Source: Candidatus Hydrogenedentales bacterium
GTDB taxonomy: Bacteria; Hydrogenedentota; Hydrogenedentia; Hydrogenedentales; SLHB01
DNA: 59,106 bases
Direction: 5' to 3'
Assembly: GCA_041859045.1 (NCBI GenBank)
Contig: JBHELB010000051.1
Coordinates: 1 to 59,106 of the forward strand
The notes beneath the pieces were generated by a model, which made no database searches, was not told the origin of the DNA, and saw only the letters and a list, made by a program, of their open reading frames with translations. Position numbers and translations under genes: made by a program. Position 1 is the stretch's first letter. The number at the start of each line of letters is the position of its first letter. Shown piece after piece: positions 9,503 through 9,724 of this stretch.

Positions 9503-9724
9503 ATGAGCAACAAAATGGCCTTCGAAGTGCCCTTCTTGGTTGGGAGCGTTCCTCTTTCCGAGGAAGGCAGCCCGTGTGCGTCGGGATTCTCATGCGCATG
9601 CGGGTACTCTGGCTGCGCGGATAACTTCGATCCGGACTGCGGTGCCGGGTTGGCGATCTCCGCAATTGGCGCGATCGCCGGCATCGTTATCGCGATCGTG
9701 CCGACGAACGCGGCGCCAGGCTAA
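9503..9724 (+). CDS. RiPP precursor peptide (73 aa): leader, Cys-rich core 'CASGFSCACGYSGCADNFDPDCGAG', then a hydrophobic Gly/Ala/Ile-rich tail
   Basis: Small ORF with RBS GGAGGTG 8 nt upstream. It has five Cys in 22 residues. It is followed on the same strand by a PqqD-like RRE and two radical SAM enzymes. Confidence 0.7.
   Translation: MSNKMAFEVPFLVGSVPLSEEGSPCASGFSCACGYSGCADNFDPDCGAGLAISAIGAIAGIVIAIVPTNAAPG

Follow-up and report, generated by a model that had tools for sequence, protein, structure and literature searches.

Sactibiotics are the described peptides closest in layout to the system reported here, a candidate pathway for a ribosomally synthesised and post-translationally modified peptide (RiPP). 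In thuricin CD (Trn-alpha/beta), subtilosin A and thurincin H, a leader is followed by a run of N-terminal cysteines and a hydrophobic C-terminal half rich in Gly and Ala. Their maturases are radical S-adenosylmethionine (rSAM) enzymes with a SPASM domain, fused to a PqqD-type RiPP recognition element (RRE), and their clusters also contain ABC export and immunity genes. The products are relatively hydrophobic hairpins in which N-terminal Cys donors are linked to C-terminal acceptors, and several of them act on membranes (PMC8326336, PMC5397516, PMC8172795). For the known members, both hairpin formation and an effect on membranes are on record. Our system is located in a 59,106-nt stretch of Candidatus Hydrogenedentales DNA (contig JBHELB010000051.1, hereafter the window), where a precursor peptide of 73 amino acids (aa) is encoded at positions 9503–9724. 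The initial annotation of this peptide had assumed that sactipeptide cores are mostly soluble, which is incorrect. Since sactibiotics are hydrophobic hairpins, a Cys-rich half joined to a Gly/Ala-rich hydrophobic half is their classical layout and not an anomaly.

The window peptide family shared the hydrophobic character of the sactibiotics and was net acidic besides. Unlike sactibiotic clusters, the window additionally encoded a B12-binding rSAM enzyme, a second, stand-alone PqqD protein and a diderm-type FtsX-ABC pump together with a CPBP-family protease. The tail was longer and more uniformly apolar than in sactibiotics (20 uncharged residues) and had a conserved Pro-rich end, and thioethers are proposed here by analogy. 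When the features of sacti- and ranthipeptide systems were compared, the Cys donors and the two auxiliary-cluster Cys motifs of the maturase were present; the cutoffs of the characterised synthase families were not reached.

Three other groups of systems resembled the locus in part. The skf cluster of Bacillus subtilis also combines an rSAM-SPASM-modified Cys peptide with an ABC export/resistance pair and a membrane protease, SkfC, whose gene bears the annotation putative protease (PMC8172795). Unlike the window, skf has no B12-rSAM enzyme, transmembrane (TM)-length tail or FtsX-type pump, and its product SKF is a head-to-tail cyclised peptide of 26 residues with one thioether and one disulfide. 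We take SkfC to be a member of the CPBP family. Cys-CTERM/myxosortase systems share with the window an invariant Cys right before a membrane-length hydrophobic segment and a CPBP protease encoded alongside (bioRxiv 10.1101/2023.06.07.544157, PMC11980579). In contrast to these systems, the window had no Arg-rich cluster, signal peptide or passenger, its CPBP protein fell outside the Mrt models, and the candidate substrate was an rSAM-linked peptide of 73 aa. From the tripartite Cys–TM–Arg signal, the Cys and the apolar run were present, and Lys and Arg were absent from all 13 tails. Polytheonamide-type proteusins and epipeptides likewise have hydrophobic cores rich in Gly, Ala, Val and Ile that are served by B12-rSAM and other radical SAM enzymes, and their known products are membrane-active (PMC8326336). 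The window peptide differed by its Cys-rich head and had neither a nitrile-hydratase-like nor a Nif11 leader, and its SPASM enzyme showed no detectably greater similarity to EpeE or PoyD than it did to PqqE or CteB.

A literature search for the precursor motif strings, and for CPBP in combination with RiPP and radical SAM, returned nothing relevant. The general logic of the locus (precursor, recognition protein, rSAM enzymes and transporters) is already well known, so the category is not new. What is new is a precursor family that has no Pfam or NCBIfam model and about ten members in 5.8 billion proteins, and, in all five loci with the long form of the precursor, the translational coupling of a CPBP protease with an FtsX-type ABC pump. 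The fixed enzyme set is unusual, with a B12-dependent and a SPASM rSAM enzyme and apparently a PqqD domain for each of the two.

The precursor gene and selection on it

Translation of 9503–9724 (+) gave MSNKMAFEVPFLVGSVPLSEEGSPCASGFSCACGYSGCADNFDPDCGAGLAISAIGAIAGIVIAIVPTNAAPG followed by a stop codon, exactly as quoted in the initial annotation. The peptide contained five Cys, at residues 25, 31, 33, 38 and 46. The first 20 residues of its tail, GAGLAISAIGAIAGIVIAIV, constituted the longest uncharged apolar run of the precursor (G47–V66; G, A, I, V and L) and contained the Kyte-Doolittle maximum of the peptide (19-residue mean of 2.53 at residues 48–66). The complete 27-residue tail was free of K, R, D and E. 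The translation, the five Cys and the hydropathy bear out the earlier description of a Cys-rich core with a hydrophobic Gly/Ala/Ile tail.

A word-indexed search of 5.8 billion proteins yielded a sole relative, P0002, which also had 73 aa and shared 67% aa identity with the window precursor at a nucleotide identity of just 63%. Its gene was found on the metagenomic contig L001, at the same position within the same nine-gene order. Synonymous sites were saturated between the two genes, with a proportion of differing synonymous sites (pS) of 0.79–0.95. The corresponding non-synonymous proportion (pN) was 0.43 for residues 1–24, 0.13 for residues 25–46 and 0.11 for the tail. Codon differences in the tail comprised 15 synonymous and 4 non-synonymous changes, and 23 of the 27 residues were identical. 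Because synonymous sites were saturated while the tail had four non-synonymous codon changes, the precursor is under purifying selection. A chance open reading frame (ORF) was rejected based on this selection, the syntenic orthologue and the strong ribosome-binding site. The other small ORFs in 9300–10300 were all overlapping or antisense and none of them was conserved, by which an alternative precursor in this region was rejected as well. The initial annotation had left room for an unconserved ORF or a different real precursor; orthologues were present, and no rival small ORF was conserved. We conclude that the ORF at 9503–9724 is a genuine gene, and that an rSAM peptide cluster has its conserved structural gene here.

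When the window was compared with L001, identity was highest in the tail (85%) and the Cys-rich head (77%), followed by the B12-rSAM enzyme (61%), the SPASM enzyme (45%), the PqqD protein (39%), the leader (38%), the CPBP protein (31%) and a 365-aa protein encoded upstream of the precursor (29%). Head and tail, the presumed core, were the most conserved element of the cassette, which suggests that both are part of the finished product. The leader was the fastest-evolving part of the peptide. Its divergence was similar to that of the PqqD protein, its presumed partner (38% vs 39% identity), the pattern expected for a leader and a core. The boundary between leader and core would be at about residues 17–24. 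The initial annotation had stated that the leader has no Gly-Gly site. This is literally true for the window, which has G14-S15, but seven of nine long-form relatives carry G-G at the aligned position, 10 residues before the first Cys. As read from the alignment, the leader may carry a double-glycine-like site.

Long and short forms of the family

No match to the precursor peptide was found in Pfam or NCBIfam. When 1.84 billion cluster representatives were scanned exhaustively with HMMER, four more small proteins were recovered (P0123, P0126, P0127 and P0129), and profile searching raised the family to about ten proteins, labelled 'hypothetical protein' at best in their sources. The wider family became visible beyond the peptide searches, by looking beside homologues of the SPASM enzyme. 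Homologous small ORFs next to rSAM-SPASM genes, which the initial annotation had proposed to look for, were found in five long-form loci and in short-form clusters. A contig scan with the SPASM protein gave just generic rSAM matches (25–36% identity over the CxxxCxxC region) and no orthologous cluster, and missed the window's own genome too.

Long-form precursors (window, L001, L023, L027 and L111) had 69–81 aa, 5–6 Cys and an uncharged run of 16–24 residues, and shared the leader motif M-S-x-x-x-x-F-E-[IVL]-P-[YF]-[LIM]-x-G-G-[VIM]-P. The long-form cassette occurred in these five independent loci and consisted of the precursor, a PqqD protein, one to three B12-rSAM enzymes, a PqqD-rSAM-SPASM enzyme, an ABC ATPase, an FtsX-type permease, a CPBP protease and an MsbA-like exporter. 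Locus L023 contained multi-copy precursors with three B12-rSAM genes beside them.

Short-form precursors had 45–46 aa and were found in Alkaliphilus hydrothermalis (L025), in many human-gut contigs among L033–L050, and in L047/L048. Their core, C-G-[VM]-N-C-[DN]-W-G-F-G-x-G-I-x-I-A-...-P-x-P-G-P-T, was all that followed the leader. The clusters contained two genes each for B12-rSAM and SPASM enzymes as well as an ABC-2 system, and some also had an exporter. The short-form SPASM and B12-rSAM enzymes were homologous to those of the window (30% identity, about 250–290 bits). The order precursor, PqqD, B12-rSAM and PqqD-rSAM-SPASM was observed in the window, L001, L023, L027, L111 and the short-form clusters, and corresponds to the general genomic arrangement of RRE-dependent rSAM RiPP systems.

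The layout of leader, Cys-rich segment and hydrophobic tail was repeated in every relative. Only M1, F7, P10, C25 and C46 were invariant in all forms; in an alignment of 10 sequences, G14, C38 and D40 were nearly invariant. A G-I-V-I-A-[IM]-V block and the P..PG end of the tail were common to long and short forms. All 13 peptides were net acidic and had tails that contained neither Lys nor Arg.

Several features accompanied the clusters in their surroundings. Short-form clusters also held a conserved 59-aa ORF; this form was frequent in human-gut assemblies and has no NCBIfam model. They were flanked by Agr-type genes (L025 3000–5900; L047 12207–14286) encoding AgrB, a 39-aa AgrD-like ORF, a GHKL histidine kinase and a LytTR regulator, which suggests density-dependent control. 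Some long-form cassettes lay beside a phage-type integrase and an extracytoplasmic function (ECF) sigma factor/FecR anti-sigma pair (L111 1222–6246, L112 2762–7786, L001 1–1338), which hints at mobility and regulation of an envelope-stress type. No ECF sigma/FecR pair was seen in the window.

Maturation, protease and transport genes

The features of the precursor and its cassette are listed in Table 1. Gene starts in the window, such as that of the ABC ATPase, were taken from gene calls on identical contigs. The stand-alone PqqD gene followed the precursor gene in every related cluster. For the B12-rSAM enzyme, the nearest solved structure was QCMT, a protein glutamine C-methyltransferase (9ccb, 79.8 bits). 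It remained under every curated cutoff of the NCBIfam models, including that of the RiPP C-methyltransferase model TIGR03975 (91.5 vs 281.85 bits). The SPASM enzyme retained the CxxxCxxC motif and seven SPASM cysteines, all invariant across six homologues. Its closest solved structures were PqqE, CteB and SkfB, the last with a weak match (6efn, 45.5 bits). Among curated models it scored best with the mycofactocin maturase (132 vs a cutoff of 265 bits). It was under all curated maturase cutoffs (StsB 100.2 vs 625, PapB 89.3 vs 340, SCIFF 76.5 vs 425 bits) and far under the StsB, SkfB, AlbA, PapB and SCIFF models.

In each of the five long-form loci, the FtsX and CPBP genes shared a 4-nt overlap (window 13818–15835, L001 6837–8842, L023 10450–12488, L027 5680–7682 and L111 13150–15173). 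This exact overlap suggests that the two proteins are made together and may work together. In the CPBP protein, W-E-E-x-x-Y-R, F-x-x-x-H and H266 were invariant in four orthologues, so the catalytic EExxxR, FxxxH and His motifs were kept. It scored far below the Mrt models (MrtS 23.1 vs 130 bits, Mrt_core 16.5 vs 100 bits). The domain matches agreed with the neighbours named in the initial annotation, an rSAM-SPASM enzyme and a CPBP/Rce1-like protease. The exporter contained the ABC_membrane and ABC_tran domains only, also as previously described; the Peptidase_C39 domain of double-glycine systems was absent from it and from its counterparts in L001, L027 and L111.

The 365-aa membrane-anchored protein encoded upstream of the precursor is possibly part of the peptide system. 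It had no match in Pfam or NCBIfam, and its single-sequence AlphaFold model was uninformative (pLDDT, the predicted local distance difference test score, 33.8). In L027, a LolA_like (PF17131) protein was encoded directly upstream of the precursor (838–1617). The window protein showed no similarity to this L027 protein (hhalign probability 0.1%), which gives no ground for calling it LolA-like. In L023 and L111 the same slot held exported proteins with no detectable similarity to the window protein, and no mutual homology was detected between the upstream proteins of different subgroups.

Table 1. Coordinates of the precursor gene, its parts and the surrounding cassette in the window.
Feature	Position	Strand	Basis or description
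Membrane-anchored protein, 365 aa, upstream of precursor	8229..9326	+	orthologue at same position in L001
Ribosome-binding site AGGAGG	9488..9493	+	9 nt 5' of ATG; read from sequence
Precursor peptide gene	9503..9724	+	73 aa and stop; translation, orthologue, purifying selection, family profile matches at this position in five long-form loci
Putative leader, residues 1–24	9503..9574	+	motif F7-E-x-P10-[FY]-[LIM]-x-G14-[GS]-[VIM]-P, then variable linker
Cys-rich head, residues 25–46	9575..9640	+	C25, C31, C33, C38, C46; motif C38-x-D-x-x-D-x-x-C46
Uncharged hydrophobic tail, residues 47–73	9641..9721	+	GAGLAISAIGAIAGIVIAIV then PTNAAPG
Long-range stem-loop after precursor stop	9737..9881	+	arms 9737–9753 and 9866–9881; -79.5 kcal/mol, z = -2.6
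Stand-alone PqqD-family protein, 116 aa	9910..10260	+	PF05402, 28.9 bits vs cutoff 23.4; putative leader-recognition element
B12-binding rSAM enzyme, 434 aa	10257..11561	+	PF02310 and PF04055; 4-nt overlap with PqqD gene
PqqD-fused rSAM/SPASM enzyme, 509 aa	11574..13103	+	PF05402, PF04055 and SPASM matches
ABC ATPase, DevA/LolD/MacB type	13087..13821	+	domain/family matches
FtsX-type permease	13818..14978	+	PF02687, 27.5 bits; weak PF12704 (MacB periplasmic core domain)
CPBP (Rce1-like) glutamic intramembrane protease	14975..15835	+	PF02517, 52.1 bits; 4-nt overlap with FtsX gene
MsbA/HlyB-like ABC exporter	15871..17721	+	PF00664 and PF00005 only; ~35 residues ahead of membrane domain from proposed start 15871

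The hydrophobic tail

The initial annotation had interpreted the tail as a helix of TM length with GxxxG-like packing. In the window, the 20-residue run and the small-xxx-small motifs (G49xxxS53xxxA57 and G56xxxG60xxxA64) were present. TM length applied to a subgroup only, as the hydrophobic run comprised 16–24 residues in long-form relatives (Kyte-Doolittle mean 1.4–2.6) but 12–13 in short forms, and GxxxG-type zippers were not conserved across the family. AlphaFold, supplied with the 10-sequence alignment, predicted a helix at residues 44–65 with low confidence (pLDDT ~50–58; mean for the precursor 48.8). Periodicity of a helical/amphipathic, 3-10 or beta type was neither significant nor consistent across the tails; the amphipathicity check that had been proposed earlier was thus negative.

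The tail most likely belongs to the core and the product rather than being a detachable anchor. We read it as core because the hydrophobic end makes up most of the post-leader peptide in the short forms, whose clusters encode homologues of both rSAM enzyme types. The conservation of the tail, including the G-I-V-I-A-[IM]-V block and the Pro-rich end, exceeded the need of a passive anchor and supports this assignment.

Proposed product and alternative explanations

With moderate confidence, we consider the locus to represent a rare, uncurated rSAM-RiPP family with a cross-linked, methylated, net-anionic and membrane-active product of the bacteriocin type that retains its tail. In the proposed pathway, residues 1 to about 17–24 would serve as the leader, bound by the two PqqD recognition domains, and residues 25–73, the Cys-rich head together with the hydrophobic tail, would form the core. 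The SPASM enzyme is predicted to make thioether-type cross-links via C25 and C46, and in the subgroup of the window also via C31, C33 and C38. Cross-linking of the cysteines is proposed because C25 and C46 were invariant, the seven-Cys SPASM motif was complete and PqqE, CteB and SkfB were nearest in structure. By analogy with sactipeptide hairpins, residues of the hydrophobic C-terminal half are plausible acceptors. The B12-rSAM enzyme would C-methylate unactivated carbons of the core, an assignment made because QCMT was its nearest solved relative. The MsbA-like pump would export the peptide, and the FtsX-ABC/CPBP pair may trim the leader, protect the membrane of the producer, or both. For trimming, the CPBP proteins SkfC and MroQ, the protease of the agr system, are precedents; for protection, the CPBP immunity proteins of class II bacteriocins. 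The resulting peptide would be net anionic, very hydrophobic and membrane-active, of a bacteriocin type, and would keep its tail. A secreted, bacteriocin-like product is favoured because both forms were accompanied by an exporter and a second ABC system, and the Firmicute clusters by regulators of the quorum-sensing type.

Several observations weigh against this proposal. Neither rSAM enzyme reached the curated cutoff of any characterised maturase family, and thioether formation and C-methylation are therefore analogies here. SPASM enzymes also form C–C and C–O links, epimerise residues and form cyclopropanes, and the chemistries of B12-rSAM enzymes are several (PMC12931638). In peptides of the L023 type, the Cys span (30 residues) was longer than the tail (24 residues), which does not fit a symmetric nested hairpin. 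The invariant Cys right before the apolar stretch and the obligatory CPBP protease would also fit cleavage of the tail. The CPBP gene was missing exactly where the tail was short, so the protease could be tied to the long tail. The structure predictions for the peptide and the upstream protein were uninformative.

Should the mature peptide keep its tail, diderms would make a cross-linked and methylated, net-anionic product whose apolar segment has membrane length, an unexplored type of membrane-active natural product. The human-gut and Firmicute relatives, with a minimal core of 25 residues, should be convenient to study. Few substrates of prokaryotic CPBP proteases are known, and the locus adds a defined candidate that shares an operon with the protease.

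Cleavage of the tail is the alternative that survived best, although we consider it unlikely. Here, the tail would be a detachable segment resembling a tail anchor, which would insert into the inner membrane and hold both leader and Cys-rich head at the cytoplasmic face for the rSAM enzymes; CPBP would cut by Cys46, possibly modified, and the FtsX-type pump would extract the head with a LolA-like or other exported partner. Rce1 makes such a cut at prenyl-Cys-AAX and myxosortase at MYXO-CTERM, and CPBP enzymes are known to cleave a C-terminal signal made of a Cys motif and a TM segment (bioRxiv 10.1101/2023.06.07.544157, PMC11980579). C46 was positioned 1–4 residues ahead of the apolar run in 13 of 13 peptides. 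The CPBP catalytic motifs were kept and the gene was translationally coupled to FtsX in the five long-form loci. CPBP occurred only with apolar tails of 16–24 residues and was absent from the short-tail clusters (Alkaliphilus hydrothermalis, human-gut contigs and L047), and in L027 the LolA_like protein was encoded just upstream of the precursor. Against cleavage, no member had an Arg/Lys cluster after the tail, an N-terminal signal peptide or a large passenger domain, and the CPBP scores were far under those required by the Mrt models. Removal of the tail from the short forms would leave about 5 residues, and the tail, including PTNAAPG, was more conserved than a passive anchor would need.

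A more specific and somewhat more doubtful version places the whole maturation on a membrane-embedded, tail-anchored precursor. The rSAM enzymes would modify the head, including Cys46, at the membrane interface, CPBP would make a CAAX-like cut beside this Cys, and the FtsX-type pump would extract the product with a LolA-like or analogous partner. If true, this would be the first RiPP pathway built on an intramembrane 'follower' signal, and RiPP biosynthesis would be connected with the machinery of Cys-CTERM sorting.

It is improbable that the tail is itself the main substrate, yet its composition would suit this role. An EpeE/YydG- or cyclopropyl-synthase-like SPASM enzyme and a PoyB/PoyC-like B12-rSAM enzyme would epimerise, methylate or cyclise Ile, Val and Ala, giving a channel like gramicidin or polytheonamide, and the Cys would serve for disulfides or metal binding. 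The tail was the best-conserved segment and rich in Ile, Val, Ala and Gly. L023 had three B12-rSAM genes, and the short forms had two B12-rSAM and two SPASM enzymes for a core with two Cys. Val and Ile are known substrates of rSAM epimerases, and both epipeptides and polytheonamide are membrane-active (PMC8326336); RS-SPASM enzymes convert Val into cyclopropylglycine (PMC10878394). However, C25 and C46 were the sole core residues invariant in all forms, which points to Cys as reaction partners. There was no NHLP or Nif11 leader, the score with the RiPP C-methyltransferase model TIGR03975 was far below its cutoff, and the tails lacked alternating or regular periodicity.

Finally, it is very improbable that the ORF encodes a small tail-anchored membrane protein (e.g. 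a transporter subunit or regulator) that travels with the cluster and is not modified: although it formally has a tail-anchored topology, as its only hydrophobic segment stops 7 residues short of the C-terminus, and modification of the peptide is a prediction from the genes, it was always the first gene before the PqqD protein and the rSAM enzymes, two PqqD domains would otherwise have no candidate substrate, the variable leader (like its PqqD partner), conserved core and multi-copy precursors of L023 are typical of RiPP structural genes, and the short-form relatives have no segment of TM length.

RNA signals and other genes in the window

The stem-loop after the precursor stop codon had analogous, sequence-unrelated counterparts 3' of the precursor genes in L001 (2745–2830, z = -7.3) and L023 (2700–2750). 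None of the three was a canonical terminator or matched Rfam. We infer that these structures set the precursor:enzyme ratio, the usual way to over-produce a precursor. The Rfam scan of window positions 7800–10400 gave no match, including no cobalamin riboswitch. No sigma-70-like site emerged from the promoter scan, and none of the terminator-like sites matched the position of the stem-loop.

Directly downstream of the cassette (17769–25305, −), genes of a type II secretion system (T2SS)/type IV pilus were encoded, comprising GspF, GspE, a secretin and a PilN-domain protein. The secretin and the other T2SS genes next to the cassette make a diderm host probable. Just upstream of the peptide cluster, a barnase-type ribonuclease domain fused to a Phage_Mu_F-like domain (6177–6809, −) was followed by a Barstar-family gene (5822–6154); together, these genes (5822–6809, −) look like a polymorphic toxin/immunity pair. 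Two further large proteins had no obvious link to the cluster, a 1345-aa protein with a DUF2357 and a cold-shock domain (813–4850, +) and a 1155-aa thermolysin-like M4 protease with a dockerin domain (34610–38077, −). A second ORF with weak similarity to the rSAM-SPASM enzyme (26.8 bits, local phmmer) was located at 56075–57190 (−).

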